Origin: Gemmatimonadota bacterium
GTDB taxonomy: Bacteria > Gemmatimonadota > Gemmatimonadetes > Gemmatimonadales > GWC2-71-9
Assembly: GCA_011390645.1 (NCBI GenBank)
Contig: JAABRY010000004.1
Span: 1,608-65,607, forward strand
Reading direction: 5' to 3'
Length of the DNA: 64,000 bases
In this document: positions 26,838-46,023 of the stretch, piece after piece
How positions within the stretch are numbered: the stretch's first letter is position 1
Layout of the letters: every line of letters starts with the position of its first letter
Made by a program: the position numbers and the translations under genes
Notes under the pieces: generated by a model
Databases searched by the model: none
The model's input: only the letters and a program-made list of their open reading frames with translations
Told to the model about the DNA's origin: nothing

Positions 26838-26856
26838 CGGCGAGCAGCAACAAGGG

Positions 26857-26909
26857 AAACGTGAAAGGTGAAAGGGGCGCCAACGCTGCCCGTTTCACCT
26901 TTCACGTTT
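26857..26909. repeat. 17-bp perfect hairpin from GTGAAAG/GTGAAAC heptamers, followed by (CGTTCAC)x2
   Basis: AAACGTGAAAGGTGAAA at 26857-26873 pairs perfectly with TTTCACCTTTCACGTTT at 26893-26909. It starts about 20 nt after the permease stop. CGTTCAC x2 follows at about 26916-26929. Confidence 0.85.
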
Positions 26910-26952
26910 TGCCCCCGTTCACCGTTCACGCCACACCACTATCTTGGGCCCC

Positions 26953-29253
26953 ATGAAATCCTGTCTCCTGCTCGCCGTCCTGGTCCTCCCGTCCGTGCTC
27001 CCTGCGCAATCCCCTCCCCCCATGTTGCAGCCACCGCGGCTTGAGGTGGAGGTCACGATCGACGGGGTGCTGGACGAACCGGCCTGGCAACAGGCGGCTC
27101 GGGCAGATGGCTTCTTCCAGTTCCGGCCCGTGGACTCGCGCCCCGCCGAGGATTCGACGGTGGTCCTGGTCTGGTACTCGCCCACCGCGATCCATTTCGG
27201 CATCCTCGCCTATGACCAGGATCCTGCGTCGGTGCGTGCGACGCTCTCCGATCGCGACAACATCGGCAGCGACGATCAGGTCACCATCTTCCTGGACACC
27301 TTCAACGATCGCCGGCGCGCGTACTTCTTCGGCGTGAACCCCTACGGCGTGCAGGACGACGGCGTGCGCAGCGAGGGCGGCTTCTCGGCCTCGAGCGGCG
27401 GGTCGGGGAGCACCGATCGCAATCCGGACTTCGTCTGGCAGAGCAAGGGGATGAAGACCGACTTCGGCTGGGTCGCCGAACTGCGCGTGCCGTTCAAGTC
27501 GCTGCGCTGGAACGCCGGCGGGGAACTGACCTGGGGCTTCAACGTGCAGCGCGTGACCCGACGCACCGGGTATGAGGACACCTGGACCGACGTGCGTCGT
27601 GCCAACGCCTCGTTCCTCGCGCAGGCCGGTGCCCTCGCCGGGATCCGCGAGATTCAACGCGGCGTCGTCACCGAGGTCCAGCCGACCATCACGGCAGATT
27701 TTCCCGGGCAGCGGCTGGGGGATGGACGCTTTGACCGGGGCGACGTGCGGCATGATGTCGGCGTCAACTTCCGCTTCGGCTTCACCCAGACGACGCTGGA
27801 CGGCACCATCAATCCGGACTTCTCGCAGGTCGAGTCCGACGCGGGACTGGTGACGATCAACGAGCGCTTTGCGCTCTTCTTCCCGGAGCGGCGTCCGTTC
27901 TTCCTCGAGGGCGTCGAGCTCTTCGCCTCACCGAACAACCTCGTCTACACCCGTACCGTGGCGAACCCGCTGGGCGGTGCCAAGTTGACGGGGAAGTTCG
28001 GTGCGGTGACGGTGGCCCATCTCACCGCCCTCGATGAATTCGGCCAGGCCCGTGACGGTGGTGTCACCGGCGACACCCGTGCGCTGGTCAACATCACCCG
28101 ACTGCGCCGCGATGTCGGTGCGAACTCCATCGCCGGGGTGACCCTCACCAATCGCGACGAAGACGGCGACTACAACCGCGTGCTCTCGGCGGACACGCGG
28201 CTGGTCTTCAAGGAGCTGTACTATCTCCAGGCGCAGGTGGGCGCCTCGTTCACCCGCGATGGTCGTGATGATGACGTGCGGAGCGATCCGCTCTGGGAGG
28301 TCGAGGTCGACCGCACCGGTCGCGCCTTCGGTTTCAACTACAAGGTCACCTCGATCGGCGACGACTTCGAGACCTGGAGCGGTTTCGTTAATCGTACCGG
28401 CATCGTCACCGCACGCGCCTTCAATCGCTACTCAGCGTATGGGGCACGCGGGGCGCTGGTCGAACAGGCCTCGGTCTTCGGTGGCATCAGCCGGATCTGG
28501 CACGCAGGCGACCTGTTCGCCTCGCGCGCGCTCGAAGGCAGCAACGAGCTCAACTACTCGGCACGCGTGCGGGGTGGGTGGAACCTCTCCGGCAAGGTCG
28601 AGCAAAGCTTCGTGCGCTTCGATCCGAATGCCTATGTGAACTACACGGTCGCCTCCCCAGGGGGGGCGACGGCGTTCCGCCCCGCTGGCGGAGTGTTCGA
28701 TGCGCTGGCCACCAACATTTCCCTCTCCACGCCAACGTGGCGTCGGTGGGAGGGCTCGTTGCGGTTCGAGACCGGGGCGACGGCAATCTTCCCCGAGGCC
28801 GCAGAAGGGCGCGCCCAGTCGGCGACCGCCTCGGTCACCCTGCGGCCGAATGCCTCGGTGCGAGTCTTCGGTACGCTGCGCGCCCAGCGCCTCAAGCGCG
28901 CGACCGACGGTAGCGAATTCGCGCGCACGATTCTGCCGCGCCTCAAGGTCGAGGTGCAACCGAATCGCTACCTCTTCTTCCGGTTGGTGGCGGAATACCG
29001 CAGCGAACGTCAGGACGCGTTGCGCGACCCCACGACGGGGCAGGCGATCCTGATTGGCGGGACTCCGGCCGATCGCCGCCGCACCGATCGCCTGCGGATG
29101 GACTGGCTGGCGTCGTATGAGCCGACCCCGGGTACGATCGCCTTCATCGGCTATGGCTCCACGCTCGATGGCGACCGCGCGCTGACGCTCCGCTCACTGG
29201 AGCGTGTCGAGGACGGAATCTTCGTGAAGGTGGCGTACTTGTTCAGGAAGTAG
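26953..29253 (+). CDS. DUF5916 / carbohydrate-binding-family-9-like outer-membrane protein
   Basis: ATG 26953 gives a signal peptide (LLLAVLVLPSVLPAQS). An N-terminal CBM9-like region (IDGVLDEPAWQQA..FFQFRP) is followed by a long beta-rich C-terminus ending ..VKVAYLFRK. Confidence 0.7.
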   Translation: MKSCLLLAVLVLPSVLPAQSPPPMLQPPRLEVEVTIDGVLDEPAWQQAARADGFFQFRPVDSRPAEDSTVVLVWYSPTAIHFGILAYDQDPASVRATLSDRDNIGSDDQVTIFLDTFNDRRRAYFFGVNPYGVQDDGVRSEGGFSASSGGSGSTDRNPDFVWQSKGMKTDFGWVAELRVPFKSLRWNAGGELTWGFNVQRVTRRTGYEDTWTDVRRANASFLAQAGALAGIREIQRGVVTEVQPTITADFPGQRLGDGRFDRGDVRHDVGVNFRFGFTQTTLDGTINPDFSQVESDAGLVTINERFALFFPERRPFFLEGVELFASPNNLVYTRTVANPLGGAKLTGKFGAVTVAHLTALDEFGQARDGGVTGDTRALVNITRLRRDVGANSIAGVTLTNRDEDGDYNRVLSADTRLVFKELYYLQAQVGASFTRDGRDDDVRSDPLWEVEVDRTGRAFGFNYKVTSIGDDFETWSGFVNRTGIVTARAFNRYSAYGARGALVEQASVFGGISRIWHAGDLFASRALEGSNELNYSARVRGGWNLSGKVEQSFVRFDPNAYVNYTVASPGGATAFRPAGGVFDALATNISLSTPTWRRWEGSLRFETGATAIFPEAAEGRAQSATASVTLRPNASVRVFGTLRAQRLKRATDGSEFARTILPRLKVEVQPNRYLFFRLVAEYRSERQDALRDPTTGQAILIGGTPADRRRTDRLRMDWLASYEPTPGTIAFIGYGSTLDGDRALTLRSLERVEDGIFVKVAYLFRK

Positions 29254-29310
29254 TCTGCGGGCCGGCGGGCGCCGGGTCGGGCAAGGGTGTCGTGTCGCCT
29301 GCCGTCGTGT

Positions 29311-29538
29311 CTAGCGGGGGGCGCTGCGACGATCGGGGACGTGTTCAAGCAAGTCACCCGGCTGAATCTCGAGTGCGCCACAAATCCGGTCGAGCGTGTC
29401 GACGGTGAATCGCCCGAACTCCATCTTCGGATCGGCGAGGCGATACGTTGTCGGGGCAGACAACCCGGTCATCAGGGAGAGCCGGTAGGGAGTCCATCCC
29501 TTGGCCTTCAGCACCTCGGCCAGACGAAAGCGAATCAA
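29311..29538 (-). CDS. small XRE/Cro-C1-type HTH transcriptional regulator (copy 1)
   Basis: 75 aa with a TTG start supported by alignment to copy 2. HTH region is WTPYRLSLMTGLSAPTTYRL. The ..FTVDTLDRICGALEIQPGDLLE tail is typical of short YozG-like HTH proteins. Confidence 0.8.
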   Translation of the reverse strand: MIRFRLAEVLKAKGWTPYRLSLMTGLSAPTTYRLADPKMEFGRFTVDTLDRICGALEIQPGDLLEHVPDRRSAPR

Positions 29539-29610
29539 TTGGCTACCCCAAGGGGTTAATGCACACGGGCAAGATTGGTACGGAACCCCTATAATCTAAA
29601 GACGTATTAG

Positions 29611-29639
29611 TTGCTGGTAATAACACCCGGTGTAAGTAA
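29611..29639 (+). promoter_or_regulatory. candidate promoter of the glucan synthase gene (-35 TTGCTG, 17-nt spacer, -10 AAGTAA) with dyad ACACC-c-GGTGT in the spacer
   Basis: It sits in a locally AT-rich stretch (about 44% GC over 29551-29640 by hand count). Geometry matches the copy-2 promoter, with the dyad centre 17 nt from the -35 start. 22 of 31 positions are identical to 38530-38560. Confidence 0.4.
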
Positions 29640-29858
29640 CGACATGGAAGAGTGACGTGCCCTGAGCCCCGCCGTTGAGGGGGTGTTTCGGTCCCTCTGC
29701 CCCCCCCGACATCGACGAACCATCCTCGGCGTGCGCACAGCGGAGCCACCGTGATCGGGTTCTCCTGCCGTTGCGCGTGATCATGTGGGCTGTGCCTTGT
29801 GATGGGGATCACTCGTCCCCACCGACGCCATCTCTCGCCACAGAAGGTTCCGTTTGCC

Positions 29859-32800
29859 ATGCCAGTCACCTCGTGGATTGCCCGCCTCCTCCCTTCGCGG
29901 CGGGACGGCCCTGACGAGGTGCTTGCTGGACCGATCCGTGGCGACCTGCTCGGCCACGAGCACCTCGTGCAGCGCGCGCAAGCGGTGGCGCGTGGTCAAC
30001 AGCTCGCCCCTCGCCGCCGGGGTGGGCGCCGGCCGAAGCTTCTCGCCCGCCTGGATGACACGCGCCGGGTCATCGCTTCCGCACATTCGCGCCTCGTTGG
30101 CACGACCAGTGAAACCGACATCGGCCCTGCCGGGGCCTGGTTGCTCGACAACTTCCATGTGGTCGAGCAGCACATCCGTGAGGTCGAGGCCAGCCTCCCG
30201 CGCAACTACTACGCGGAACTCCCCGAACTGGCGACGGGTCCGCTCGCCGAATATCCGCGCGTGTATGAATTGGCCATCACACTCATTTCGCACACCGAGG
30301 GCCGGCTCGACCTGGAGAACATCGAGTCCTTCATCGAGGCGTTCCAGCACGAGGTAGCGCTCTCGATCGGCGAGCTGTGGGCCGTCCCGGCGATGTTGCG
30401 GCTGGGCCTGCTCGAGAGCGTGCGGCGCACCACCCTGCGGACGGTGGAGCGCCTTGGGGAGGTGGAGTCGGCCGATCGGTGGGTTGTGCGCCTCCTTGCC
30501 GCCGAGGCGGACGGGCCCGACGCCCTGCGCGCGGCGCTTCGGGACTTCACGGACTCATCCCCCGGGCTCACGCCGAGCTTCGTTGCGCACCTGCTGCAGC
30601 AGCTTCGGCACGCAGGTCATGAACCGCAGACCTTTGCCCGTCTCGAGGCGTGGATCGCGGAGCAAGGCGCCAGCGGCGAGGACGCGGAAGCCCTTGCCAC
30701 GCAACGGCTCGGACTGACCCAGTTGATCATGGCCAACAGCATCCTGTCGCTGCGCGCGATTGGGCGTCTGGATTGGCGGGCACTGGTCGAGCGCCAGAGT
30801 GCGATCGAGGCAATCCTCCGGGATGATCCGGCGGCCATCCACGCGCAGATGACCTTTGCCACGCGAGACCGCTACCGGCACGTGGTCGAGCGGGTGGCCC
30901 GGCGGACACAGCGCTCAGAGGAAGAGGTCGCCAGGACCACCTTGGCGCTGGCGCGCGACGCGGCCGCGACCCACCCGGAGGCACCGTGGCGTGCGCACAT
31001 CGGCTACTTCCTGGTCGACGACGGGTTCGAGACATTGGCGCAGGCCACCGGCTATCGTCGCGGCCCCCGCGAGCGACTGCATCATCTGGTGTGTCGCCAT
31101 CCCAATGTCGTCTTTGGGGGGGGGATTGCCCTGGGCACGGCCGCTGCCCTTGCCGCGCTCTTCGCGCTGGCCGGACCCGTCGCGGGTGACGCCTGGGCCC
31201 TGGTGGCGCTGGTCGCCTTCCTGCCGGCACTCGACATCGCGGTGCATGCCGTCAACCAGCTCGTCACCACCTTCCTGCCGCCGCGCATCCTGCCGAAGCT
31301 CGATCTGCGGACGGCGGGCATCCCGGCACACCTGCGGACTGCCGTCGTGATCCCCACCTTGTTCGACAATGTGGCGGCGGTGCACGAAGCGCTCGAGAAT
31401 GTCGAGGTGCAGTTCCTGGCGAATCGGGGTGAGCATCTTCACTTCGCGGTGCTGAGCGACTTCACCGATGCCGTCGCCGAGGTCATGCCCACGGATGATG
31501 CCATTCTCCGGGCAGCCGTCACCGGGATCGACGCGCTCAACGCGCGCTACGCACCGAAACATCGCGACGCGTTCTATCTCTTTCATCGTCCGCGGCAGTG
31601 GAATGCCTCGCAGGGCACGTGGATGGGGTGGGAGCGCAAGCGCGGCAAGCTGGGAGAGTTCAATCGATTCGTCCGTGGTGGGGCCGCGGCGGCATTCTCG
31701 ACGACGGTCGGCAACCTCACACCACTGCGTGGCATCCGTTACGTGATCACGTTGGATGCGGATACGATGCTCCCTGCCGAAGCGGCACCGTTGTTGATCG
31801 GCACAATCGCCCATCCGCTCAATCAGGCCGTCTTCGATGCGACGACCAGCCGTGTCGTGCGTGGGTATGGTGTGCTCCAACCCCGCGTCAGTGTTTCGCT
31901 CCCGAGCGCACACCAGACGCCCTTCGCGAAGATTCACTCGGGCCACCCCGGGGTGGACCCCTACACGACCGCGGTGTCGGATGTCTACCAGGACCTGTAC
32001 GGCGAGGGGAGCTACACGGGGAAGGGCATTTACGACCTGGATGTCTTCGAGCAGGCCACTGGTGGCCGCTTCCCCGAGAACACGCTGCTCTCGCACGACC
32101 TGATCGAGGGCAACTACGCGCGTGCGGGTCTGGTGACCGATATCACGCTGCATGATGACTACCCCGCACGCTACGCCACGCACAGCCGCCGCAAGCATCG
32201 CTGGATTCGGGGAGACTGGCAGCTCGTGGGGTGGTTGAGACGTCGGGTGCCCGGCCCCGCCGGGCCGCAACGCAACCGGCTCTCCCTCCTCTCGCGGTGG
32301 AAGCTGCTCGACAACCTGCGCCGCAGCACCACGGAGATCGCGCAACTCGCGTTTCTCATCGCAGGGTGGTGGTTGGTGCCTGGGTCACCATTGCGATGGA
32401 CCGCGCTGGCCTTGGCGGCGGTGGCGGCACCCTGGATCATCGGGTTCCTGCTCGCCGCCTTGCGACCGCCGCGTGACGCCTCGTGGCGTGCCTACTACAC
32501 GGCGATTGGCCGAGATCTGCGCGTCAGTGCGCAGCAGGTGGGGCTGGCCGTGGCCTTCCTGCCGCACCAGGCGTGGGTCTCGGTGGATGCCATCGTGCGC
32601 ACCTGGTACCGGCTGGGCGTCAGTCGCCGGCAACTCCTCGAGTGGCAGGCCGCAGCGCAGGCAGCGCACAGTGACCTGCTCCGTCCCCAAACGACGTGGC
32701 GGTTGATGCGACCCGCCGTGGTGCTGACCGCGATGCTTGCCGTGGTGGCGATGTTGCCCGGTGTGCATGGGCCGGACACCCTGCCGCCATGGCGACAAGC

Positions 32801-35800
32801 GTTGGCCGCGTTGCCTATTCTCGCACTCTGGGGCGCCGCCCCACTCCTGGCCCGTTTCCTCAGTGCTCCCGTGCGCCGGGGTCCGCGCCTCGCGCTCTCG
32901 CTCCAGGCGCAGGCTGCCCGGTACGCGCGGTACCACTGGGCCTACTTCGAGCGCTTCGCGACGGCGGAGACCCACTGGTTGATCCCCGACAACTTTCAGG
33001 ACGATCCCCTGCCGGTCGTCGCGATGCGCACCTCCCCAACCAACATCGGGTTGCAACTCCTCGCGACGGTCAGCGCCCGCGACCTGGGTTTCCTCTCCAC
33101 CGGGGAGATGGTCGAGCGACTGGAGGCGATCTTCGCGTCGATGGATCGGATGGACCGTCTCCGCGGGCACTTCTTCAACTGGTACGACCTGCACGATCTC
33201 CGGGTCCTCGCGCCGGCGTATGTCTCAACCGTCGACAGCGGCAATCTGGCCGGCCATCTCATTGCGCTGCGGCAAGCGTGCCTTGGCCTGCAGGACGGGA
33301 CGGAACTGGATGCACGACTCGCATCGCTCGCGGAACGGGCGTACACCTTCGCGATGGCGATGGACTTCTCGTTCCTCTATGACCCCCGCCGCAAGCTGCT
33401 CGCGATCGGCTATCAGCATGAGACCCACACTCTCGATGAGTCCTACTACGACTTGCTGGCGTCCGAAGCACGCCTCGCGTCGTTCATCGCCATCGCCAAA
33501 CGCGACCTCCCCGTGGAGCACTGGTTCCGCCTGGATCGCACCCTGACGCGTACCGATGGCGAGACAGCGCTCATCTCATGGAGCGGGAGCATGTTCGAGT
33601 ACCTGATGCCCACCCTGGTGATGCGCACGTATCCATCCACCCTGCTCGACCAGACCTGTCGCGCAGCCGTGCAGCGACACATCCGTCACGGTGCCGCGCA
33701 TGACGTGCCCTGGGGGGTCAGCGAGAGCGCCTACAATGTGCGTGATCGTCACCTCACCTATCAGTATCGCGCGTTCGGCGTGCCAGATCTGGCTCTCAAG
33801 CGCGGGCTCGGCCGTGACCTGGTGATTGCTCCGTATGCCTCGATCCTCGCGATGCAGGTGGAACCGGAGCGCGCCCTGGCGAATCTTGATCGCCTCGAAT
33901 CGGCGAAGACCCTCGGTCCGTATGGGTTCCGCGACGCGATCGATTTCACTCGTCCCGATCCGGACGGCTCGGGCGCGGTGGTGGCAACCGTGATGGCGCA
34001 CCATGCCGGAATGAGTCTGGTGGCGCTGACCAATACGCTCACGGCAGAGATCTGGCAGCGTCGATTTCACGACGACGCCCTGGTGCGCGCCGCCGAGCTG
34101 CTGTTGCACGAGCGCATCCCGCGTCGCTTCCTGCTGCAAGCCCCGCAGGCTCAACCGACACCGACCGCACGATCCACCCCCGAGGCAGCGCGACCGGTGG
34201 TGCGTGAGGTGGTCGACCCGGTGGGCGCGGCGTCGCGCATCGCCATGCTGGGCCGCGCGCCCTATACGGTCATGGTCAGCAGTGCCGGCGGAGGCCCGAG
34301 CCAGTTCGAGGACATCGCGGTCACCCGGTGGCGACCCGACGCCACGGCGGACGACACCGGACAGTTCTGCTACGTGCGGAACGTGACCGCTGGGCGAACC
34401 TGGTCGGTCGCGCACCAGCCGACTGGCGTTGCGGCTGACGCGCATCGCGTGGTACTGGCGAATGACCGGGCCACATTCGAGCGCGTCGACGGTGACATCG
34501 AGACCCGCACCGAGGTCGTGGTCGTGCCCGAGGACGCGGCTGAAGTTCGTCGCGTCACCGTCACCAACACTGGGGCCACGACGCAGACGGTCGAATTGAC
34601 CAGTTACGGCGAGATCGTCATGGCCCGCCAGAGTGCCGACCGCGCGCACCCCGCGTTCTCCAACCTCTTCGTCGAGACCGAGTGGCACGACTGGTGTTCA
34701 GCGATCACGGCCACGCGACGCCCGCGATCCGAGGGTGAACGACGGCTCTGGTGTGTGCATGTGGTGGATACCGCCGCGGCACGCGGGCACGAGGTCAGTT
34801 GCGAGACCGAGCGCGCCCGATTCCTGGGGCGAGGACGGTCCGTGCGCGATCCGATCGCGGTGGAGACGAGTGGTCCGCTCTCCGGGACGACCGGCTCCGT
34901 GCTGGACCCGATCTTCGCCCTGCGTGTCTCGGTCCGGCTCCAGCCGGGCGAGTCCACGACGATCACGTTCACCACGTTGGTCGCCACGACACGTGACCGC
35001 GCACTCGAGATGGCGGACCGCTACCACGATGTCCACGCCGCACAGCGCGCACTTGACCTCGCGGCGATGTCCACCCAGGCCGAGTTGCGCGACCTGGCCA
35101 TGACGCCCGCGGATGCCGCGCTGTTCCAGGATGTCGCGGCCCACCTGGTGCGCGGGACCGCGATGCTACGGGCCCCCCAGGAAGAAGGACAGTTGAATCG
35201 CGGCGGCCAACCGATGTTGTGGGCGCAGGGCATCTCCGGCGACCATCCCATCGTCCTCGCGACGATCGCGGGGGATGTCGGCCTGCCGACCCTGCGCCAA
35301 CTGCTTGCCGCGCACCGCTTCTGGCGGCTGCGCGGCATGACGGTGGATCTGGTGGTCCTCAATACACGCGCCACCGGCTACCTGCTCGACCTCGACCATG
35401 CCATCAGCGCAGGGATCTTTGCCGAGGGCGAGACGGCCGTGCGAGACCAGCCGGGCGGAGTGTTCGTGCGGCGTCAGGATCAACTTGGCAAGGACGAACT
35501 GCTGATGCTGCGCGCATCGGCCCGCATTGTTGTCCCGTGCGATGGCCGTGCCCTCGAGGCGTGGCTGCATGTCCAATCGGGAGACGCCGCGACCACGCCC
35601 GTTCGGGAGATCGAACGACGCGCAACCGTCCGGCTGGGCACCGACATGCTCTCCCCGCGTGCAGCGCATGCCCTGCGCTGGCTGCGCACACCGAAGCCTG
35701 CCCCCGTACCAGATGTGGAGGGCGATGCCACATCGATCATCGGCGTCGAGAGCACCACTCCGCCGCAGGTCATGCCTGCGCTGCGCTTCGACAACGGGAT

Positions 35801-38213
35801 CGGTGGCGTGACGGCCGAGGGCGACTACCTGATGCGCCTGCAGGGTGATGAGCTGCCCCCTGCGCCGTGGGCCAATGTCGTGGCCAATCCGCACGGTGGC
35901 TTCATCGTCACCGAACGTGGCGGGGGCAACACCTGGAGTGGCAACAGTCATTTCTACCGGCTCACACCATGGCACAACGACCCGGTGACGGATCCGTGCG
36001 GGGAGGCGATCTACCTTCGCGACGAATCGTCTGGTGCCGTATGGAGCACGACACCCGGACCGCGGGACAGCGGCGCGTCGCATCAGGTTCGACACGGCGC
36101 CGGATTCTCTGCCTTCACGCAGGTGCACCGCGGCCTGCGTGCCGTCACCACGCTCGGCATGGTTCCGGATGCTCCGATCAAGGTCACCCGCCTCGCACTG
36201 ACCAACACCAGTGACGTGCACCGTCGCATCACCGTCACGGCCTACGCCGAGTGGACGCTCGGTGCCCTGCGAGAACACGCCCGACACCACATCGCCACCC
36301 GATTCCTTCCCGGCCATGGGGCGATGGTGGCCCACAATGCATTCGACCCGCAGTTCGCCGATCGCGTCGCGTTTCATGCGCTCGACACGCACGTGACCGC
36401 ACACACCGGTGATCGCACCGAGTTTCTGGGTCGGCAGGGTTTCACCGGCGATCCGGTTGCCCTCAGGCATGGCGCTCCGTCCCTCCGGGGTACCACCGGC
36501 GTGGGCCATGATCCGTGCTCCGCGCTGCAGTGCGAGATCGAGCTGGCACCCGGTGAATCGCGCGAACTCGTCGTCCTGTTGGGTACTGCGCAGGGAGACG
36601 AGGAGGTGATGGCGGTCCTGACACACCATCGCGCGCCGGGCGTTGCCGCTGCGGCTCTCGCGGCCTCGATCGAGGCGTGGGAGGCACGACTCTCGGTGAT
36701 CAGGGTGACAACTCCCGAGCCCTCGTTCGATGCGATGGTCAATCAGTGGACGCTCTATCAAGCGCTCTCCTGCCGGATGTGGGCGCGATCAGCGGTGTAT
36801 CAGAGTGGTGGTGCGTACGGCTTCCGCGATCAGTTGCAGGATGTCATGGCCTTCGTGTATGCAGAACCCGGCATCGCACGGGAGCACATTCTGCGTGCCG
36901 CCGCCCGCCAGTTCGTCGAGGGCGACGTGCAGCACTGGTGGCATCCGGAGAGTGGTCGTGGCACCCGGACGAGATTCTCCGATGACCTGGTCTGGCTTCC
37001 GTACGTCGTGGATCACTACCTCCGCGTCACCGGCGACACGTCCATCCTCGATGCGACAGCGCCCTTCCTCGTGATGCGCGAGCTCGCACCCGGCGAGCAG
37101 GAGATCTACGACGCGCCTGCCGGCAATGCCGCGGAAGCAAGCATCCATGAGCACTGCCTGCGCGTCTTGCGGCGGGCGTGCACCGTCGGCCCGCACGGCC
37201 TGCCGCTGATCGGGTGTGGCGACTGGAACGACGGGATGAGTGATGTCGGCATCGAGGGCCGTGGTGAAAGCATCTGGCTGGCGTGGTTCCTGATCGCCAC
37301 GCTCCGCGGGTATGCGGAGCACGCCGCCGACCGGGGGGAGCACGAGGTGGTGACCGAGCTCACCGATCGCGCCAACGCGTATGTCGAGGCGGTCGAGCGC
37401 GAGGGGTGGGATGGGGCGTGGTATCGCCGCGCCTACTTCGATGATGGCACGCCGCTCGGTTCACGAGAGAACGCGGAGTGCATGATTGACGCAATCGCCC
37501 AGAGCTGGAGTGTGCTGTCAGGTGCTGGGGCACCCGCGCGTCAGGTGCAGGCGATGGACTCTCTCGCGACGCATCTGGTGCGCGATGAGCCGCGCGTGAT
37601 TGCACTGCTCACCCCCCCCTTCGACACGGCGCCGCTCAACCCCGGCTACATCAAGGGCTATCTGCCGGGGGTCCGAGAGAATGGGGCGCAGTACACCCAC
37701 GCCGCCCTCTGGGCAGTACTCGCCGCCGCAAAGAGCGGCGAGGGTGACCGAGCCTTCGAGTGGTTCCAGTACCTCAATCCGCTGACCCATACCGACACGC
37801 CGGACGGGGTGGCCACCTACAAGGTGGAGCCGTACGTGGTCGCGGCGGATGTGTATACGGCCGCTGGTCATCTCGGACGAGGTGGGTGGACCTGGTACAC
37901 CGGGGCCGCGAGCTGGATGTACCGCACCGCGCTGGAGGGGATTCTCGGCTTTACCAAGCGCGGCACGACGCTGACGCTGGCGCCGCAGGTGCCGGACGAT
38001 TGGCGCGAATTTCAGATCGACTATCGCTATGGCAGCAGCACCTATCGGATCGAGGTGCAGCTACCGGAACGTACCGCGGGTCTCGAAATGTCGATTACCG
38101 TGGATGGCGTCGCGAGGGATGACGGGATGATTGCGCTGGTCGACGACGGGGGAGTGCATCAAGTCGTCTGCCGAAGAGGCTCGACCAGATCTTCCGTCGG
38201 ATCAGGGACGTAG
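29859..38213 (+). CDS. ndvB: cyclic beta-1,2-glucan synthase (NdvB/Cgs/ChvB type; GT84 + GH94-like modules)
   Basis: 2,784 aa from ATG 29859 (track ORF from GTG 29799). It has N-terminal TM segments plus a glycosyltransferase region (ITLDADTMLP, HRWIRGDWQ), a central alpha/alpha-barrel-like region and a C-terminal GH94 phosphorylase-like region (GGAYGFRDQLQD, GDWNDGM, ENGAQYTHAA). Confidence 0.9.
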   Translation: MPVTSWIARLLPSRRDGPDEVLAGPIRGDLLGHEHLVQRAQAVARGQQLAPRRRGGRRPKLLARLDDTRRVIASAHSRLVGTTSETDIGPAGAWLLDNFHVVEQHIREVEASLPRNYYAELPELATGPLAEYPRVYELAITLISHTEGRLDLENIESFIEAFQHEVALSIGELWAVPAMLRLGLLESVRRTTLRTVERLGEVESADRWVVRLLAAEADGPDALRAALRDFTDSSPGLTPSFVAHLLQQLRHAGHEPQTFARLEAWIAEQGASGEDAEALATQRLGLTQLIMANSILSLRAIGRLDWRALVERQSAIEAILRDDPAAIHAQMTFATRDRYRHVVERVARRTQRSEEEVARTTLALARDAAATHPEAPWRAHIGYFLVDDGFETLAQATGYRRGPRERLHHLVCRHPNVVFGGGIALGTAAALAALFALAGPVAGDAWALVALVAFLPALDIAVHAVNQLVTTFLPPRILPKLDLRTAGIPAHLRTAVVIPTLFDNVAAVHEALENVEVQFLANRGEHLHFAVLSDFTDAVAEVMPTDDAILRAAVTGIDALNARYAPKHRDAFYLFHRPRQWNASQGTWMGWERKRGKLGEFNRFVRGGAAAAFSTTVGNLTPLRGIRYVITLDADTMLPAEAAPLLIGTIAHPLNQAVFDATTSRVVRGYGVLQPRVSVSLPSAHQTPFAKIHSGHPGVDPYTTAVSDVYQDLYGEGSYTGKGIYDLDVFEQATGGRFPENTLLSHDLIEGNYARAGLVTDITLHDDYPARYATHSRRKHRWIRGDWQLVGWLRRRVPGPAGPQRNRLSLLSRWKLLDNLRRSTTEIAQLAFLIAGWWLVPGSPLRWTALALAAVAAPWIIGFLLAALRPPRDASWRAYYTAIGRDLRVSAQQVGLAVAFLPHQAWVSVDAIVRTWYRLGVSRRQLLEWQAAAQAAHSDLLRPQTTWRLMRPAVVLTAMLAVVAMLPGVHGPDTLPPWRQALAALPILALWGAAPLLARFLSAPVRRGPRLALSLQAQAARYARYHWAYFERFATAETHWLIPDNFQDDPLPVVAMRTSPTNIGLQLLATVSARDLGFLSTGEMVERLEAIFASMDRMDRLRGHFFNWYDLHDLRVLAPAYVSTVDSGNLAGHLIALRQACLGLQDGTELDARLASLAERAYTFAMAMDFSFLYDPRRKLLAIGYQHETHTLDESYYDLLASEARLASFIAIAKRDLPVEHWFRLDRTLTRTDGETALISWSGSMFEYLMPTLVMRTYPSTLLDQTCRAAVQRHIRHGAAHDVPWGVSESAYNVRDRHLTYQYRAFGVPDLALKRGLGRDLVIAPYASILAMQVEPERALANLDRLESAKTLGPYGFRDAIDFTRPDPDGSGAVVATVMAHHAGMSLVALTNTLTAEIWQRRFHDDALVRAAELLLHERIPRRFLLQAPQAQPTPTARSTPEAARPVVREVVDPVGAASRIAMLGRAPYTVMVSSAGGGPSQFEDIAVTRWRPDATADDTGQFCYVRNVTAGRTWSVAHQPTGVAADAHRVVLANDRATFERVDGDIETRTEVVVVPEDAAEVRRVTVTNTGATTQTVELTSYGEIVMARQSADRAHPAFSNLFVETEWHDWCSAITATRRPRSEGERRLWCVHVVDTAAARGHEVSCETERARFLGRGRSVRDPIAVETSGPLSGTTGSVLDPIFALRVSVRLQPGESTTITFTTLVATTRDRALEMADRYHDVHAAQRALDLAAMSTQAELRDLAMTPADAALFQDVAAHLVRGTAMLRAPQEEGQLNRGGQPMLWAQGISGDHPIVLATIAGDVGLPTLRQLLAAHRFWRLRGMTVDLVVLNTRATGYLLDLDHAISAGIFAEGETAVRDQPGGVFVRRQDQLGKDELLMLRASARIVVPCDGRALEAWLHVQSGDAATTPVREIERRATVRLGTDMLSPRAAHALRWLRTPKPAPVPDVEGDATSIIGVESTTPPQVMPALRFDNGIGGVTAEGDYLMRLQGDELPPAPWANVVANPHGGFIVTERGGGNTWSGNSHFYRLTPWHNDPVTDPCGEAIYLRDESSGAVWSTTPGPRDSGASHQVRHGAGFSAFTQVHRGLRAVTTLGMVPDAPIKVTRLALTNTSDVHRRITVTAYAEWTLGALREHARHHIATRFLPGHGAMVAHNAFDPQFADRVAFHALDTHVTAHTGDRTEFLGRQGFTGDPVALRHGAPSLRGTTGVGHDPCSALQCEIELAPGESRELVVLLGTAQGDEEVMAVLTHHRAPGVAAAALAASIEAWEARLSVIRVTTPEPSFDAMVNQWTLYQALSCRMWARSAVYQSGGAYGFRDQLQDVMAFVYAEPGIAREHILRAAARQFVEGDVQHWWHPESGRGTRTRFSDDLVWLPYVVDHYLRVTGDTSILDATAPFLVMRELAPGEQEIYDAPAGNAAEASIHEHCLRVLRRACTVGPHGLPLIGCGDWNDGMSDVGIEGRGESIWLAWFLIATLRGYAEHAADRGEHEVVTELTDRANAYVEAVEREGWDGAWYRRAYFDDGTPLGSRENAECMIDAIAQSWSVLSGAGAPARQVQAMDSLATHLVRDEPRVIALLTPPFDTAPLNPGYIKGYLPGVRENGAQYTHAALWAVLAAAKSGEGDRAFEWFQYLNPLTHTDTPDGVATYKVEPYVVAADVYTAAGHLGRGGWTWYTGAASWMYRTALEGILGFTKRGTTLTLAPQVPDDWREFQIDYRYGSSTYRIEVQLPERTAGLEMSITVDGVARDDGMIALVDDGGVHQVVCRRGSTRSSVGSGT

Positions 38214-38407
38214 TCGAGGAGATCGCCAGGTTGGACGTCGAGGGCCTTGCAGATCCGATCGAGCGTGTCCGCGGTGAATCGCCCGAACTCCATCTTGGGA
38301 TCGGCGAGCCGATAGGCCGTGGGAGCGGTCAACCCGGTCACCACGGACAGTCGGTAGGGGGTCCATCCCTTGGACTTGAGGACTTCCCCCAAGCGAAACT
38401 GGATCAT
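38159..38407 (-). CDS. small XRE/Cro-C1-type HTH transcriptional regulator (copy 2)
   Basis: 82 aa from ATG 38407, with GAGG 5 nt upstream. 56 of 69 aligned residues are identical to copy 1. The 3' end overlaps the ndvB 3' end by 55 nt. Confidence 0.8.
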   Translation of the reverse strand: MIQFRLGEVLKSKGWTPYRLSVVTGLTAPTAYRLADPKMEFGRFTADTLDRICKALDVQPGDLLDYVPDPTEDLVEPLRQTT

Positions 38408-38460
38408 GGCGGCCTCAGGAGGAAAAAGTTGCTTGGGACGCGGAGGGAGTCCCTGTCGTG

Positions 38461-38519
38461 ATAATACCACACGAGATTATGTCACGCAAGATTAATATTT
38501 CCTAAAATTAATGTGTCAA
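38461..38519 (-). promoter_or_regulatory. two candidate tandem promoters for HTH copy 2
   Basis: On the minus strand, P1 is TTGACA (38519-38514), a 17-nt spacer and ATTAAT (38496-38491). P2 is TTGCGT (38489-38484), a 17-nt spacer and TATTAT (38466-38461). The P1 -35 lies inside the inverted repeat TTAATGT-N6-ACATTAA (38508-38527). Confidence 0.4.
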
Positions 38520-38530
38520 AACATTAAGAC

Positions 38531-38565
38531 TTGCAAATAATAAGACCCGGCGTTAGTATTTGCAA
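38531..38565 (+). promoter_or_regulatory. candidate promoter of the response-regulator cluster (-35 TTGCAA, 17-nt spacer, -10 TAGTAT) embedded in a 35-bp dyad
   Basis: TTGCAAATA (38531-38539) and TATTTGCAA (38557-38565) are perfect 9-bp inverted arms. 14 of 17 positions pair around centre C38548. The local region is about 31% GC (33/105 over 38461-38565 by hand count). Confidence 0.45.
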
Positions 38566-38620
38566 CAGAGGCGATGTGCACTGATCCCCGCCGTGGTGGT
38601 CGCGCCGTCGAGTAACTCCA

Positions 38621-39313
38621 ATGACTGACACTATTTCGCTGGTTCTGATTGACGACAACCGCCTGCTTCGCGAGGGGCTCACCCGATTGATTCGTGAGCA
38701 GCCCGGTTTCCTGATCCTTGCGGCCTCCGCCGACATCGACGAGGCACTCCAGAAAGTCCGCGAAGCCAAGCCCACCGTGGTCTTGCTCGACTTCTCGCTC
38801 GAGAACGACGACTCGCTGCGCGTCACCGCCACCGTCCACAAGGAAGTTCCGGCTGCCAAGGTCATTGTGATGGGACTGCTCCCTCTTCAGGAGGATGTGG
38901 CGGACTTCGTGACCGCGGGTGCGGCGGGCTTCATCATGAAGGACGCGACCTTCGATGAGTTCATTCGCACGATCCGCTTGGTGGCTGCGGGCGAGCAGGT
39001 CCTGCCCAGGGAGTTGACCGGATCGCTCTTCTCCCAGATCGCCCGAATCGCCGTTCGTCGTGGCAAGCCGCGTGAGCTGGAATCGATCGGCCTGACGGCC
39101 CGTGAGCGTCAGGTCGTGGACCTGATCAGCGAGGGGTTGAGCAACAAGGAAATCGCGGCGCGGCTGCACATCGCGATTCATACCGTCAAGAGCCACGTGC
39201 ACAATGTGCTCGAGAAACTCGCACTGCACACGCGGCTTGAGGTCGCTGCCTTCACTCGAGGGTTGACCCAACCGAATCCGGACGAGCCCGACGACGACCT
39301 GGACGACGACTAG
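38621..39313 (+). CDS. LuxR/NarL-family response regulator
   Basis: Receiver domain (LIDDN, VVLLDFSL, GFIMKDA) plus a LuxR HTH (LTARERQVVDLISEGLSNKEIAARLHIAIHTVKSHVHNVLEKL). It has an acidic C-terminal tail. No histidine kinase is present in the window. Confidence 0.85.
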   Translation: MTDTISLVLIDDNRLLREGLTRLIREQPGFLILAASADIDEALQKVREAKPTVVLLDFSLENDDSLRVTATVHKEVPAAKVIVMGLLPLQEDVADFVTAGAAGFIMKDATFDEFIRTIRLVAAGEQVLPRELTGSLFSQIARIAVRRGKPRELESIGLTARERQVVDLISEGLSNKEIAARLHIAIHTVKSHVHNVLEKLALHTRLEVAAFTRGLTQPNPDEPDDDLDDD

Positions 39314-39451
39314 TCCCTTCGAGCGGGATCCTTTGGTCTCGTTCGGTTGTGCATCTCCGGGCTGATTGCCCGTCCTCTGACCTCGCCATTGATTCCATTG
39401 GTACGCCATGTCAACTGCGACGCGGTGTCATGCAGGTACGGAGGTGGATTG

Positions 39452-39712
39452 ATGGATCTCGTCACATGGTTAGTCGTCGGATTGATTGCGGGGCTTCTCG
39501 CCAGCTTCGCGGTTGGTGGCGTCGGCTTCGGACTGCTTGGTGACATCGTCATTGGCATGGTGGGTGCCGTGATCGGCGGATGGTTGTTCGCCGAACTCGG
39601 ACTCCGCGCGCCGTTTGCTGGTCTCGCCGGCGTGATCTTCGTCGCCTTCATCGGGGCAGTGGTGCTGCTGTTGGTGCTCCGGGCCCTGCGACCACGCGGT
39701 CGCCGCACGTAA
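39452..39712 (+). CDS. GlsB/YeaQ/YmgE-family stress membrane protein
   Basis: 86 aa from ATG 39452, with GGAGGTGG upstream. Three Gly-rich TM segments are typical of the transglycosylase-associated family. Confidence 0.8.
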   Translation: MDLVTWLVVGLIAGLLASFAVGGVGFGLLGDIVIGMVGAVIGGWLFAELGLRAPFAGLAGVIFVAFIGAVVLLLVLRALRPRGRRT

Positions 39713-40224
39713 TGCCAGACTTCGGACTGCCCGACAGCCCCATCGACCACGAGTCGACGCCCGGTGGGGAGCACGCCTCCTCACCGGGACCGGAGAGCGA
39801 ACGGGAGTGGCCGACCACGGGGACCGATGATTCGGTGATCGCAGTGGCGAGTACCGGGACGGTGACCGCCATGAACGTGGCGGCGGTGTCCCTGCTCGGG
39901 CCGCCCGCGCCCCACCAATTCGGCTTGGGGATCGATCAGTTCATTCCGGCGCGATATCATCGCGTGATTGATGCGTGGGCCGATCGCCAACCAGGAGATG
40001 CCCGCGCCGCTCACCCGGATCGGCTCACCCTGAGCCTCGCAGCTGTACGTGCTGACGGCGGTGAGGTGTGGGTCCTGCTGACGCGGCGGATGCTGGGAGA
40101 GGGGCCGACGGCGCCCTATCTGGTCACGATGCGTGAGGTGGCAAATGGGTTCAGGTCGCGGATCCCCCCCGCGCCGCAGCATGTGCGACATTGGCTGGAC
40201 CGCCCGTCTCCAGTATTCGGGTAG
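39712..40224 (+). CDS. stand-alone PAS-like domain protein
   Basis: 170 aa. The ATG overlaps the previous stop (TAATG). The segment ..VIAVASTGTVTAMNVAAVSLLG..FIPARYH..RADGGEVWVLLT.. looks like a PAS core. No output domain is present. Confidence 0.5.
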   Translation: MPDFGLPDSPIDHESTPGGEHASSPGPESEREWPTTGTDDSVIAVASTGTVTAMNVAAVSLLGPPAPHQFGLGIDQFIPARYHRVIDAWADRQPGDARAAHPDRLTLSLAAVRADGGEVWVLLTRRMLGEGPTAPYLVTMREVANGFRSRIPPAPQHVRHWLDRPSPVFG

Positions 40225-40274
40225 ACCGCAGGCAACGATTCCGCGGGCTCCCTCAACGTCTTTCCGGAGCATCA

Positions 40275-40490
40275 ATGCGCGCACCACTCATCATTGGAAT
40301 CATCCTGATTGTTCTCGGGGGTATCGTGCTCGTGCGCGGCGGGAGCTTCACGACCAAGAAGAACGTGCTCGAAGTCGGGGACCTCTCGATCACGGCGGAC
40401 GAGAAGCAGACGATTCCCCCATGGGCGGGCATTCTGTCAATCGTGGCCGGGGCGGTGGTCATTGGTGCTGGCGCGCGGAAACAAGGCTGA
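40275..40490 (+). CDS. small two-TM membrane protein (DUF3185-like?)
   Basis: 71 aa from ATG 40275, with two hydrophobic segments flanking a short soluble loop. Confidence 0.5.
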   Translation: MRAPLIIGIILIVLGGIVLVRGGSFTTKKNVLEVGDLSITADEKQTIPPWAGILSIVAGAVVIGAGARKQG

Positions 40491-40583
40491 CGCATCTCCC
40501 CCTGCACCGTGTGTTGTCATGACGTGGCCTCCCGCACGATGCGGGGGCACGAGTCCAGAACAGAACTTGGCCGAGGAGGCCAG

Positions 40584-41258
40584 ATGTCCATGAACATTCG
40601 ATCGATTGCCCTTCCCCTGTTGGTGCTCGCCGGTGGCACGCTGGTCACTGGCTGCGCGACCAAGGCCCAGACTGGCGCCGCTGTGGGCGCGGGTGGGGGC
40701 GCCGTCGTGGGTGGGGTCATCGGCAAGGTGGCGGGTTCGACCGCCAAGGGCGCCATTGTTGGCGCGGTCATCGGCGGCATTGCCGGCGACATGATCGGGG
40801 CACGGATGGACCGACAGGCGCGCGAGCTGGAACAGAACATCAAGGGTGCGACCGTCGAGCGCGTTGGTGAGGGGATTCAGGTCACCTTCGCCTCCGGCCT
40901 GCTCTATGACTTCGATTCCGACGTCGTGAAGACGGATGCCCGCACCAACCTGCGCGAGTTGGCGTCTTCGCTCGACAAGTATCCTGGCACCGAACTGATC
41001 ATCATCGGCCACACCGATAACGTCGGGGCGGACAGCTACAATCAGAACCTGTCGGAGCAGCGGGCTCGGTCGGCGGCGGCCTACCTCATGACGCAGGGTG
41101 TGGCCAGCTCGCGCATCGGCACGCGTGGGCTCGGTGAGTCGGAGCCGATCGCCAGCAACGAGACCGAAGACGGTCGCGCGCGGAACCGCCGGGTGGAAGT
41201 GGCGATCTTTGCCAGTGAGGCGTATCGCCAGCAGGTCCAGCGGTCGGGGCAGCCGTGA
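40584..41258 (+). CDS. OmpA-family lipoprotein with N-terminal glycine-zipper region
   Basis: ATG 40584 is preceded by GAGGAGG. It has a lipobox (LVTGC), a Gly-zipper (GAAVGAGGGAVVGGVIGKVAG..GAVIGGIAGDMIG) and an OmpA_C motif (GHTDNVGADSYNQNLSEQRA..NRRVEV). Confidence 0.85.
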   Translation: MSMNIRSIALPLLVLAGGTLVTGCATKAQTGAAVGAGGGAVVGGVIGKVAGSTAKGAIVGAVIGGIAGDMIGARMDRQARELEQNIKGATVERVGEGIQVTFASGLLYDFDSDVVKTDARTNLRELASSLDKYPGTELIIIGHTDNVGADSYNQNLSEQRARSAAAYLMTQGVASSRIGTRGLGESEPIASNETEDGRARNRRVEVAIFASEAYRQQVQRSGQP

Positions 41259-42055
41259 ACCATCTGGTGAAGGGTGCACTCGCGGCCGGCGTGCTGGTGG
41301 CGAGTGCGTCCTGCGCCATTTCGCAGCAGCAGGAAGTGGCGATGGGTCGCGATTACAGCGCCCAGATCGCCGCGCAGTTGCCGCTCCTCAGCGATGCCCA
41401 GGTCAATCGGTACGTGACGACCTTGGGGGAGCGACTCGCGCGCGTCACCGACGCGCGCGGGCTGACGTGGCACTTCGCCGTCGTCAACAGCAGGGAAGTC
41501 AACGCCTTCGCCGTGCCGGGCGGGTGGATCTACGTCAATCGCGGCCTCATCGAGCGCGCGCAGAACATGAGTCAGTTGGCTGGTGTGCTCGCGCACGAGA
41601 TCGGCCACGTGACCCGCAGGCACTCCGTCGAACAGATGCAGCAAGCCCAGGGCGCCAACATCGGTGTGACACTCGCGTGCACGCTGACGGGCGTGTGTGG
41701 TGGCGCTGGCACGCAAGCGGCCATCAATGTTGGTGGCAGTGCGCTCTTCGCGAAGTTCAGCCGCAGCGATGAAGCCGAGGCCGATGCGGAAGCTGTCGCC
41801 ACGACCATTCGGGCGGGCATCTCGCCGACCGGCATTCCGGGCATGTTCCGGATCCTGCTTGCGGAGCGGCAAAGCAATCCCGGCGCGCTCGAGAAGTTCT
41901 TTCTGACGCACCCGCTCGCGGAAGACCGCATCACCTCGACCGAAGCGCTGATTGCCGGCTATCCCGCCGCCGAACTGCGCAATCTCGAGAAGGACGCGTC
42001 GGCGTTCCAGTCCATCCGACGTCGCTTGCTGGGGTTACCCGCCCCACCAAAGTAG
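41255..42055 (+). CDS. M48-family zinc metallopeptidase, lipoprotein
   Basis: Lipobox (VASASC), HEXXH (LAHEIGHVTRRH) and a downstream Glu (SDEAEAD). It is overlap-coupled to the OmpA-like gene (GTGA). Confidence 0.85.
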   Translation: MNHLVKGALAAGVLVASASCAISQQQEVAMGRDYSAQIAAQLPLLSDAQVNRYVTTLGERLARVTDARGLTWHFAVVNSREVNAFAVPGGWIYVNRGLIERAQNMSQLAGVLAHEIGHVTRRHSVEQMQQAQGANIGVTLACTLTGVCGGAGTQAAINVGGSALFAKFSRSDEAEADAEAVATTIRAGISPTGIPGMFRILLAERQSNPGALEKFFLTHPLAEDRITSTEALIAGYPAAELRNLEKDASAFQSIRRRLLGLPAPPK

Positions 42056-42329
42056 TTCTCGCGAGCGTTACACCTCCGTCGCAATTGTCACTCCTTCGAT
42101 CTAGCTCGAATGATCTCGCCTGGCGATCCATCGCTGGGCCGATTGCCCGCGCCGTGAATCTTCCGTAATCTCAGTCATCTGAGTCGCACGCGTGCGGTGC
42201 AGGCGGCGACATCCCTGATTGACACAGAGGAAGGTGCATGATGAATCCATTCATGGCGCGGGTAAGCGAATGGCTTGCCGCAGTACTTGGTCCGATGTCG
42301 GTGCCGCCCCTCTCACATGTGCGGAGGGA

Positions 42330-44528: not shown

Positions 44529-44703
44529 TCGTTGGTCGTTGGTCGTTGGTCGTTAGTCATAGGTCGTAGGTCGTAGGTCGTAGGTCGCAAAGGGTGAAGC
44601 GTAAGGCGCAATAGGGGCTGTCGTACTGGTTCCCCTTTCACGTTTCACGTTTCACCTTTTACTAACGACTAACGACTAACGACTAACGACTAACGACTAA
44701 CGA
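44526..44703. repeat. nested composite of four heptamer families
   Basis: The element starts with 9 units at 44526-44588 (TAGTCGT, TGGTCGTx3, TAGTCAT, AGGTCGTx3, AGGTCGC), then a 47-nt centre, then TTTCACG/TTTCACC x3 (44636-44656) and (CTAACGA)x6 (44662-44703). The outer GTCGTTG/GTCGTTA units are complementary, with G.U pairs, to the TAACGAC units. The length was checked against the flanking stop codons. Confidence 0.9.
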
Positions 44704-44709
44704 CCCACC

Positions 44710-45433: not shown

Positions 45434-45460
45434 CGACCTACGACCTACGACCTACGACCT
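45434..45460. repeat. (CGACCTA)x~4 heptamer array
   Basis: Lies immediately after the stop (45461) of the minus-strand ATPase gene. It is the reverse complement of the GGTCGTA family. Confidence 0.9.
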
Positions 45461-46012: not shown

Positions 46013-46023
46013 CTGTTGCGCCC

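Follow-up and report, generated by a model that had tools for sequence, protein, structure and literature searches.

What does it mean that one large gene stands between two copies of a small regulator gene, each with its own divergent promoter region? The question is raised by a 64,000-nucleotide (nt) stretch of DNA from a Gemmatimonadota bacterium (contig JAABRY010000004.1; hereafter, the window), in which a cyclic beta-1,2-glucan synthase-like gene (ndvB/cgs) lies between two genes for small helix-turn-helix (HTH) proteins. HTH1, with the intergenic region that it shares with ndvB, is called copy 1 here, and HTH2, with the intergenic region that it shares with a response-regulator gene, copy 2. 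The original prediction took both for a duplicated two-node module with two outputs plausibly linked to osmoadaptation. We confirm the observation behind it and find partial support for the interpretation. With a probability of about 0.6, both loci are old paralogs of a cassette found throughout the Gemmatimonadota, copy 2 in its conserved place and copy 1 in front of ndvB, and both proteins would act as dimeric repressors.

The figures on which the prediction was built were reproduced exactly. The two proteins are identical at 56 of 69 amino acids (aa), with the TTG start of HTH1 counted as Met; positions 29610-29640 and 38530-38560 agree at 22 of 31 nt, and the early transcribed nt (29652-29679 and 38571-38598) at 22 of 28. 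The intergenic regions are, as had been noted, unusually AT-rich, with 43% GC in 29555-29645 and 33% in 38465-38565 against 67% in the whole window. Local alignment of the two regions gives a score of 37, compared with a mean of 17.5 (standard deviation 2.4, maximum 34) in 1000 dinucleotide shuffles; the likeness of the two non-coding regions exceeds chance and is not restricted to the coding part. The alignments show the paralogy to embrace, as one unit, the regulator gene, its promoter block and the initial ~35 nt of the transcript. In copy 1, the homology covers ~375-400 bp, starting at the HTH1 stop (29311), or perhaps as early as ~29288, and reaching ~29685. The 64 kb contain the shared block TTGCnnnTAATAAnACCCGGnGTnAGTA at two places only, against an expectation of 0, and a search with up to three mismatches finds no site beyond these two beside the HTH genes. 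Likewise, tblastn of the window returns the two HTH genes and no further copies. A larger segmental duplication was considered and rejected, as the two 769-aa open reading frames that might have marked it (26944-29253 and 42219-44528) prove unrelated.

Both proteins match Pfam HTH_26 (PF13443, Cro/C1-type HTH) with 54.9 bits for HTH1 and 57.5 bits for HTH2 (gathering cut-off 22), cover positions 1-63 of the 63 in the profile and stop 6-13 residues past the domain. In an AF2 model (pLDDT 74), residues 6-13, 17-24, 28-35, 46-56 and 60-63 form helices, to which two short strands are added; this is the helical bundle with a helix-turn-helix, helix 3 being the recognition helix, that defines the XRE fold. 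Its top Foldseek matches are all XRE DNA-binding domains, the nearest being those of the SaPI2 Stl repressor, CapH, C.AhdI, CylR2, SinR and DdrO. HTH2 is 7 codons longer because the ancestral HTH stop (CTAG, common to the ndvB stop in the related loci L031 and L033) has been lost, and its 3′ end overlaps that of ndvB convergently by 55 nt (38159-38213). The same tail extension is present in P0001 on L034, a protein 95% identical to HTH2 in the same context.

The two copies do not derive from a recent duplication, since their synonymous sites are saturated and HTH1 is no closer to HTH2 than to the HTH proteins of other lineages (56/69 compared with 57-61/69). Differences between the two genes fall on codon positions 1, 2 and 3 in the proportion 11/4/33, and the non-synonymous and synonymous distances (dN 0.115, dS 1.18) give a dN/dS of ~0.1, which points to purifying selection on both genes and, thus, to two functional proteins. 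Third codon positions are 51% identical, while the promoter block reaches 71% and the leader relic of copy 1 (Table 1) 79%, which argues that, in both copies, the non-coding DNA is under constraint as well.

Table 1. Features of the locus, with positions in the window
Feature	Positions	Strand	Description and basis
DUF5916/CBM9-like gene	26944-29253	+	Pfam DUF5916, CBM9_1; convergent with HTH1; synteny marker
DUF5916-HTH1 spacer, 57 nt	29254-29310		29294-29314 resembles the ndvB 3′ end (GTCGCCTGCC..CTAG)
HTH1	29311-29538	minus	75-aa single-domain HTH_26/XRE regulator, TTG start
Intergenic region 1	29539-29858		AT-rich part 29555-29645, then GC-rich ndvB leader of ~213 nt
Promoter/operator block P1	29611-29639	+	-35-like TTGCTG (29611-29616), spacer GTAATAACACCCGGTG, -10-like TAAGTA/AAGTAA (29633-29639); towards ndvB
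Response-regulator leader relic	29654-29685	+	GACGTGCCCTGAGCCCCGCCGTTGAGGGGGTG; alignment with copy 2 and five orthologous leaders
Cyclic beta-1,2-glucan synthase-like gene (ndvB/cgs)	29859-38213	+	2784 aa; Pfam; start via alignment to L031
HTH2	38159-38407	minus	82-aa HTH_26/XRE regulator, ATG start
Intergenic region 2	38408-38620		AT-rich core 38465-38565
Imperfect dyad, 35 bp	38531-38565		TTGCAA-ATAATAAGACC-C-GGCGTTAGTAT-TTGCAA
Leader stem-loop (conservation weakly supported)	38573-38609	+	GATGTGC.C.GATCCCC...GGTGGTC.GCGCCGTC
NarL/LuxR-type response regulator	38621-39313	+	Pfam Response_reg 8-118, GerE 158-210; first cluster gene facing HTH2
Remaining cluster	39347-42055	+	Transgly_assoc, two small proteins, OmpA-like, M48

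The cassette in other Gemmatimonadota

A protein search gave 413 clusters with HTH2 as the query and 252 with HTH1. The listed matches are 65-95% identical, and the ~75-aa HTH is kept at 75-85% across genera. The few members whose source is named all come from Gemmatimonadota, and the genome loci come from metagenome-assembled genomes of this phylum, except for one labelled Actinomycetota (L030), which is probably mis-binned, as its contig otherwise resembles Gemmatimonadaceae loci. In that locus, a frameshift breaks the HTH gene (3001-3205), which tblastn reports in two segments. Family proteins were recognised by a length of ~75-90 aa and the motif WTPYRL..TGL.xPTxYRLA.P...FGRFT.DTL., and both proteins of the window have these characters. 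An alignment of 26 members holds 30 invariant columns, including P29, T30, Y32, R33, L34 and A35 of the predicted recognition helix (helix 3), and HTH1 and HTH2 keep all 30.

The family is equally recognisable in its DNA, for which the defining pattern was an AT-rich TTGaca-ATAGTAAT-N7-rTTAnTAT within ~150 nt upstream of the HTH start. Nearly all of the 41 related loci have this architecture, that is, a TTGACA-like hexamer, ATAGTAAT, seven variable bases and rTTAnTAT, the last of which doubles as a -10 box at 17-nt spacing. At least 11 of the 16 positions of ATAGTAAT-N7-ATTACTAT are matched in 39 of 43 cassettes; in most of the 39, the element occupies the aligned promoter position, ~50-150 nt upstream of the HTH start, usually right behind a TTGACA-like hexamer and ending in TAnTAT at a spacing of 17 nt. 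The promoter of the HTH gene itself, as read from the sequences, lies back-to-back with this outward promoter, the two -35 hexamers overlapping. Both copies in the window were counted as carrying the pattern, copy 2 with a core match of 12/16 at the aligned block and copy 1 with 9/16. The copy 1 block is among the most degenerate of the family, and an equal-scoring core match of copy 1 sits 22 nt upstream of it.

In copy 2, the element is part of the 35-bp dyad, which reads as a promoter in both directions. On the plus strand, the -35 box at 38531-38536 is followed, after a 17-nt spacer, by TAGTAT (38554-38559), towards the response regulator; on the minus strand, TTGCAA (38565-38560), again with a 17-nt spacer, precedes TATTAT (38542-38537), towards HTH2. 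This minus-strand promoter was recovered by a sigma-70 scan, and intergenic region 2 contains additional sigma-70-like sites on both strands. The dyad is matched at 14 of 17 positions in copy 2, L034 and L035, at 13 in L031 and at 12 in L033. Its score is reached by none of 500 shuffles for copy 2, L034 and L031, and by fractions of 0.002 for L035 and 0.026 for L033. The matching -35/-10 layout claimed for the two window copies stands as far as copy 2 is concerned, with TAGTAT at a 17-nt spacer, but not for copy 1, which offers only TAAGTA/AAGTAA.

These loci could, in principle, contain nothing more than a strong bidirectional promoter of the housekeeping type, with the HTH protein acting elsewhere or as an activator. 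In fact, TTGACA-17-TAnTAT is close to the sigma-70 consensus, the copy 2 dyad can be read as two overlapping promoters on opposite strands, and the dyad test fails in most single loci. Spacers are not normally conserved, yet ATAGTAAT is kept across genera and in front of unrelated downstream genes, always beside an HTH gene; both occurrences of the block in the 64 kb adjoin one; and a site lying over the -10 box of a promoter whose 17-nt spacer is optimal fits repression, not activation. We therefore regard this explanation as quite improbable.

The genes faced by the cassette are diverse. Besides the response-regulator cluster, the cassette faces a gene for a hydrophilic KGG-like protein of ~57 aa in 8 loci and fatty-acid desaturases in 3; elsewhere, its neighbour is a REC-FAD oxidoreductase, a protein of the metallo-beta-lactamase fold, a flavin monooxygenase or an AAA/DUF4143 protein. 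The two copies are thus not a self-contained two-node module but one instance of a phylum-wide cassette. The ~57-aa protein (MLDPKETKKGGFGAFAQRDRERREAE...; L006, L007, L009, L011, L020, L022, L023 and L030) is encoded on the opposite strand, at ~210-390 nt on the upstream side of the HTH gene; a GC-rich leader of ~150 nt, likewise conserved, precedes it, and its sequence makes the protein a candidate relative of the KGG-type general stress proteins. In another group (L053-L056, L001, L002, L004 and L005), the HTH gene is followed at ~20 nt, on the same strand, by a gene for a ~833-aa PAS-HisKA-HATPase-REC hybrid kinase, behind which L053 has a REC protein and a YkuD L,D-transpeptidase. Such neighbours suggest a link of the HTH family to two-component signalling and cell-wall remodelling.

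The homology between the copies continues into the leader of the response-regulator transcript. RNAalifold predicts a stem-loop of 13 pairs there (38573-38609), with compensatory changes in 1-2 pairs over 5-8 orthologs, which lends weak support to its conservation. A stem-loop is present at the matching position in L031, L033-L036 and L039, beginning ~8-10 nt past the predicted transcript start, and the few compensatory changes occur in L036 and L039. It may have a role in mRNA stability or as a binding site. An Rfam scan of the whole window at the gathering score gave no match, the stem-loop included, and the ndvB leader folds no better than its shuffles (z +0.97). A leader peptide (M[C/R]TDPRRG..) was considered for the same stretch; its frame is not kept in L031 and its start codon is lost in copy 1, and this reading was consequently dropped in favour of the stem-loop. 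As the copy 1 homology stops inside the stem-loop, the relic of copy 1 retains the 5′ arm and the loop only.

Place and history of the two copies

Copy 2 is a conserved arrangement across several genera. At least ten other loci have an HTH gene facing the response-regulator cluster in this way (L013, L014, L021, L029, L031, L033, L034, L035, L039 and L057). Response-regulator orthologs 89-100% identical stand at the same position in L033, L034, L035 and L039; the order of the cluster genes is the same in L031 and L033, and also in L057, where M48 is absent. As in the window, ndvB is convergent to the HTH gene in L031-L035, the nearer relatives.

The position of copy 1 is different. L031, the sole contig of a relative that spans the 5′ end of ndvB, lacks an HTH gene in front of ndvB; that place is taken by an efflux gene and an unrelated gene of 119 aa, and the match to the window is limited to the last ~70 nt before the ATG. 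A metagenome scan for close relatives of ndvB yielded only loci of 63% identity or less. These 13 more distant ndvB loci, 12 of which hold 1.4-2.5 kb upstream of ndvB, contain no HTH_26 gene. Among the lineages sampled, an HTH gene facing ndvB is therefore seen in this lineage only. Of the two outputs originally proposed, the response-regulator pairing is conserved and the ndvB pairing was seen in the window only.

A second arrangement involves the DUF5916 gene. Its orthologs in L036, L037 and L038 (short contigs; 89-96% aa identity) abut a single HTH gene, which in L036 and L038 faces a response regulator with no ndvB between them; the L037 contig breaks off within the promoter block. The window combines both arrangements, with the order DUF5916-HTH1-ndvB-HTH2-response regulator. 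To the left of HTH1, a stretch that keeps the register of L031 and copy 2 resembles the ndvB 3′ end and may be its remnant, although the likeness is not significant in unconstrained local alignment (p 0.1-0.4).

This pattern suggests that the cassettes might have served as direct repeats for the gain or loss of ndvB by homologous recombination, the bracket being the footprint of an insertion or excision. The existence of DUF5916-HTH-response regulator loci without ndvB (L036 and L038, with the DUF5916-HTH junction in L037), of ndvB-HTH-response regulator loci (L031, L033, L034 and L035) and of their union in the window would be expected in this case, as would the possible ndvB remnant. By contrast, the DNA of the two cassettes is now only 77% identical, which is too diverged for efficient recombination; the L036 regulator is 78% identical to that of the window, so that L036 may hold a paralog and not a deletion product; the relatives with the DUF5916-HTH junction lack the 57-nt spacer, their gap being ~3 nt; and HTH1 is a mosaic of characters of both arrangements with saturated synonymous sites. 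We consider this explanation of the bracket somewhat unlikely. More generally, the data are compatible with the gain of an ndvB-HTH segment, with the loss of ndvB by recombination between cassettes and with the fusion of two paralogous loci, and we do not choose among these histories because of the divergence of the L036 regulator, the lack of significance of the remnant and the mosaic nature of HTH1.

How the cassettes may act

Each cassette consists of a gene for a ~75-aa bare XRE (HTH_26) protein and an AT-rich region with sigma-70-type promoters in both directions, of which the outward one carries the conserved element over its spacer and -10 box. In the reading that we prefer, dimers of the HTH protein would bind this element and block RNA polymerase at the outward promoter; repression is proposed because a site over the spacer and -10 box of a promoter with the optimal 17-nt spacer is in the classical position for a repressor. 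As the element also overlaps the HTH gene's own promoter, the same dimers would be expected to regulate their own synthesis. The recognition helix is almost invariant, so HTH1 and HTH2 would probably read each other's sites, and they may heterodimerise. Thus, rather than the separate nodes of the original prediction, the operators are probably shared, and the loci would form one regulon with two regulator genes. Since the proteins lack a sensor domain, the input would have to come from the abundance of the HTH proteins, their turnover or a partner. The link to osmoadaptation was a guess from gene names.

For copy 1, this reading requires some qualification. The placement of an HTH gene before ndvB, found in this lineage only, suggests that ndvB was put behind a promoter/operator of the response-regulator type. 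Given the degraded site and -10 box, its control by copy 1 would probably be weaker or partial, and an equal control of both outputs is doubtful.

Several results weigh against the reading. At 17-nt spacing, the -10 box of copy 1 is poor (TAAGTA/AAGTAA), a simple sigma-70 scan at its threshold reports no promoter in copy 1, and the dyad of this copy is matched at only 11 of 17 positions (p≈0.13), its right arm having decayed. The ~213-nt ndvB leader could hold a promoter of its own; relatives that have no cassette before ndvB express the gene nonetheless. In most loci taken singly, both copies of the window (6/8) among them, the 8-7-8 element is no more symmetric than chance would make it, and a dyad is confined to the consensus and a few loci; consequently, the conserved block could be promoter sequence with one half-site, and the idea of a palindromic operator leans on the consensus and the 35-bp dyad of the copy 2 group. 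Finally, a genome scan, which had only 44 pattern matches to start from, gave one locus per genome (30 loci, 30 genomes). This search of relatives, which the prediction had proposed, did find the unit widely and facing varied genes, but it is too insensitive to count copies per genome.

The points that concern copy 1 would be accounted for if this copy were mainly the scar of a rearrangement, HTH1 serving the shared regulon while ndvB is driven from a promoter in its own 213-nt leader. The abrupt end of the homology within the leader hairpin would also fit, as would the conservation of the last ~70 nt before the ndvB ATG with L031, which has no cassette there, and the absence of an upstream HTH gene in the other ndvB loci with usable upstream DNA. 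However, P1 (22/31) and the relic (22/28) are much more similar to their counterparts than third codon positions are (51%, dS 1.18), which points to selection on the non-coding part of copy 1, and the sigma-70 scan detects no alternative promoter in 29650-29858. On balance, a mere scar appears unlikely, and a repressor cassette with partial control over ndvB is the reading that we retain.

A wider interpretation may be put forward tentatively, as a possibility that we would not yet call probable. The cassette could be a portable unit specific to the Gemmatimonadota, with several paralogs per genome, each of which would place an ultra-conserved specificity and a symmetric bidirectional promoter before envelope or stress genes. 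Its targets would include the response-regulator/OmpA/M48 cluster, the KGG-like protein, the fatty-acid desaturases and, here, the cyclic-glucan synthase. A phylum-wide stress regulon might then grow by the copying of cassettes, which would also be substrates for recombination.

To our knowledge, almost nothing is known about the control of transcription in the Gemmatimonadota, a phylum that is common in soil but sparsely represented in culture. The cassette offers a concrete and testable pair of regulator and operator that recurs throughout the phylum, and the window provides a natural case of regulatory rewiring, in which a unit of regulator, promoter and leader has come to stand before a cyclic-glucan synthase gene. 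Should binding be confirmed, a regulon could be predicted from the motif in hundreds of uncultured genomes, and HTH1 would be the first candidate transcriptional regulator of cgs/ndvB outside Proteobacteria. A search of the available literature found no paper on this HTH_26 subfamily or on an XRE-type regulator of cgs/ndvB, in agreement with the original remark that no regulator of this kind had been described; the cassette family, its motif and the ndvB wiring are thus undescribed as far as this search goes.

Neighbouring genes and known systems

The ndvB product has the size (~2800 aa) and the central glucoamylase-like and C-terminal GH94 phosphorylase domains of Cgs/NdvB proteins. Pfam reports Glycoamylase (4e-24) at residues 1196-1401, the GH94 supersandwich (1e-145) with its best stretch at 2001-2242 and the GH94 catalytic domain (3e-118) at 2274-2697. 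No Pfam family is reported for residues 1-1195, where the N-terminal GT84 region of Cgs/NdvB would be expected. A start at GTG 29799 was replaced by ATG 29859 after alignment to L031. On the other side of HTH2, the first cluster gene encodes a receiver domain with a GerE output domain, that is, a response regulator of the NarL/FixJ type, and no histidine kinase gene adjoins it. The Transgly_assoc protein that follows is a GlsB/YmgE-like membrane protein; two small proteins without Pfam matches come next, and an OmpA-like Gly-zipper lipoprotein and an M48 peptidase end the cluster.

The neighbourhood was also examined for other roles of the HTH genes. An Xre-type antitoxin was rejected because the neighbours in the window are DUF5916, ndvB and the response regulator, with no co-transcribed small toxin gene; no toxin-like gene stands beside the HTH gene in the related loci, the PIN/PhD pair of L053 being a separate operon ~0.8-1.5 kb upstream. 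A controller (C) protein of a restriction-modification system was likewise rejected, as no endonuclease or methyltransferase genes adjoin either copy or occur in the related loci.

The intergenic DNA of the window additionally contains arrays of 7-nt tandem repeats (3114-3848, 6815-6945, 8796-8939, 17721-17858, 26852-26929, 44528-44704, 45434-45460, 46024-46066 and 53822-53866), built from units of the families GGTGAAA, GTCGTAG, ACTAACG, GGATGTT, CCCCTCA and GGGTGAG. They frequently form inverted pairs that enclose short spacers or entire genes; for instance, 8796-8826 pairs with 8909-8939 (97% complementary) and 44541-44594 with 46021-46074. Intergenic heptamer repeats have been described in other phyla (PMC4679880, PMC4692102); our literature search found nothing on them in Gemmatimonadota.

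Among known systems, the cgs/ndvB genes of Proteobacteria represent the same type of target, with GH94 and glucoamylase-like domains in ~2800 aa. Their control is reportedly largely post-translational or exerted through global factors, and our literature search found no paper on an adjacent XRE-type regulator of cgs/ndvB.

The closest solved relative of the HTH proteins by sequence (E 7e-4) is the N-terminal DNA-binding domain of Stl from SaPI2 (PDB 8Q86; PMC11846896), which is also the closest in fold (TM score 0.72, root-mean-square deviation 1.6 Å over 68 columns) and shares the pattern MIRxRL...DxLxxxC...PxDLLE. Stl is a repressor encoded by a mobile element, and a C-terminal sensor and oligomerisation domain of ~160 aa binds phage recombinases. 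HTH1 and HTH2, by contrast, have a short, variable and often basic tail in place of this domain and are not part of a mobile element.

In the DdrO/IrrE switch, which serves Deinococcus under radiation and desiccation, stress genes are repressed by DdrO, an XRE-type protein with a similar HTH fold that recognises a palindromic motif. DdrO carries a C-terminal cleavable dimerisation domain, which HTH1 and HTH2 lack. IrrE belongs to the COG2856 family, whereas the sole peptidase of the cluster here belongs to M48, and a switch of this very type was rejected on both grounds. By analogy, the presence of the M48 metallopeptidase gene in the facing cluster nevertheless suggests that control might involve proteolysis.

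The C proteins of restriction-modification systems (C.AhdI and C.BclI) are small XRE dimers and structural neighbours of the HTH model. They autoregulate from a ~35-bp operator beside their own promoter, a size similar to that of the 35-bp dyad, although the operator sequences are unrelated; in contrast to C proteins, HTH1 and HTH2 would act on chromosomal envelope and glucan genes and have no restriction or methylase genes beside them. CylR2 of Enterococcus faecalis, a 66-aa XRE repressor of the cytolysin operon, resembles HTH1 and HTH2 as a single-domain protein of ~70 aa that has short beta-strands at its termini; it counts among the structural neighbours of the HTH model (TM score 0.67), but it is only 16% identical in sequence and comes from another family and phylum. 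CylR2 binds an inverted repeat in the promoter region between divergent operons and works with a membrane partner, CylR1, and an autoinducer peptide; unlike that system, the present one encodes no CylR1-like partner. A small XRE repressor with its site in a divergent promoter is a classical design, and what the locus adds is a new family and a new wiring rather than a new principle.

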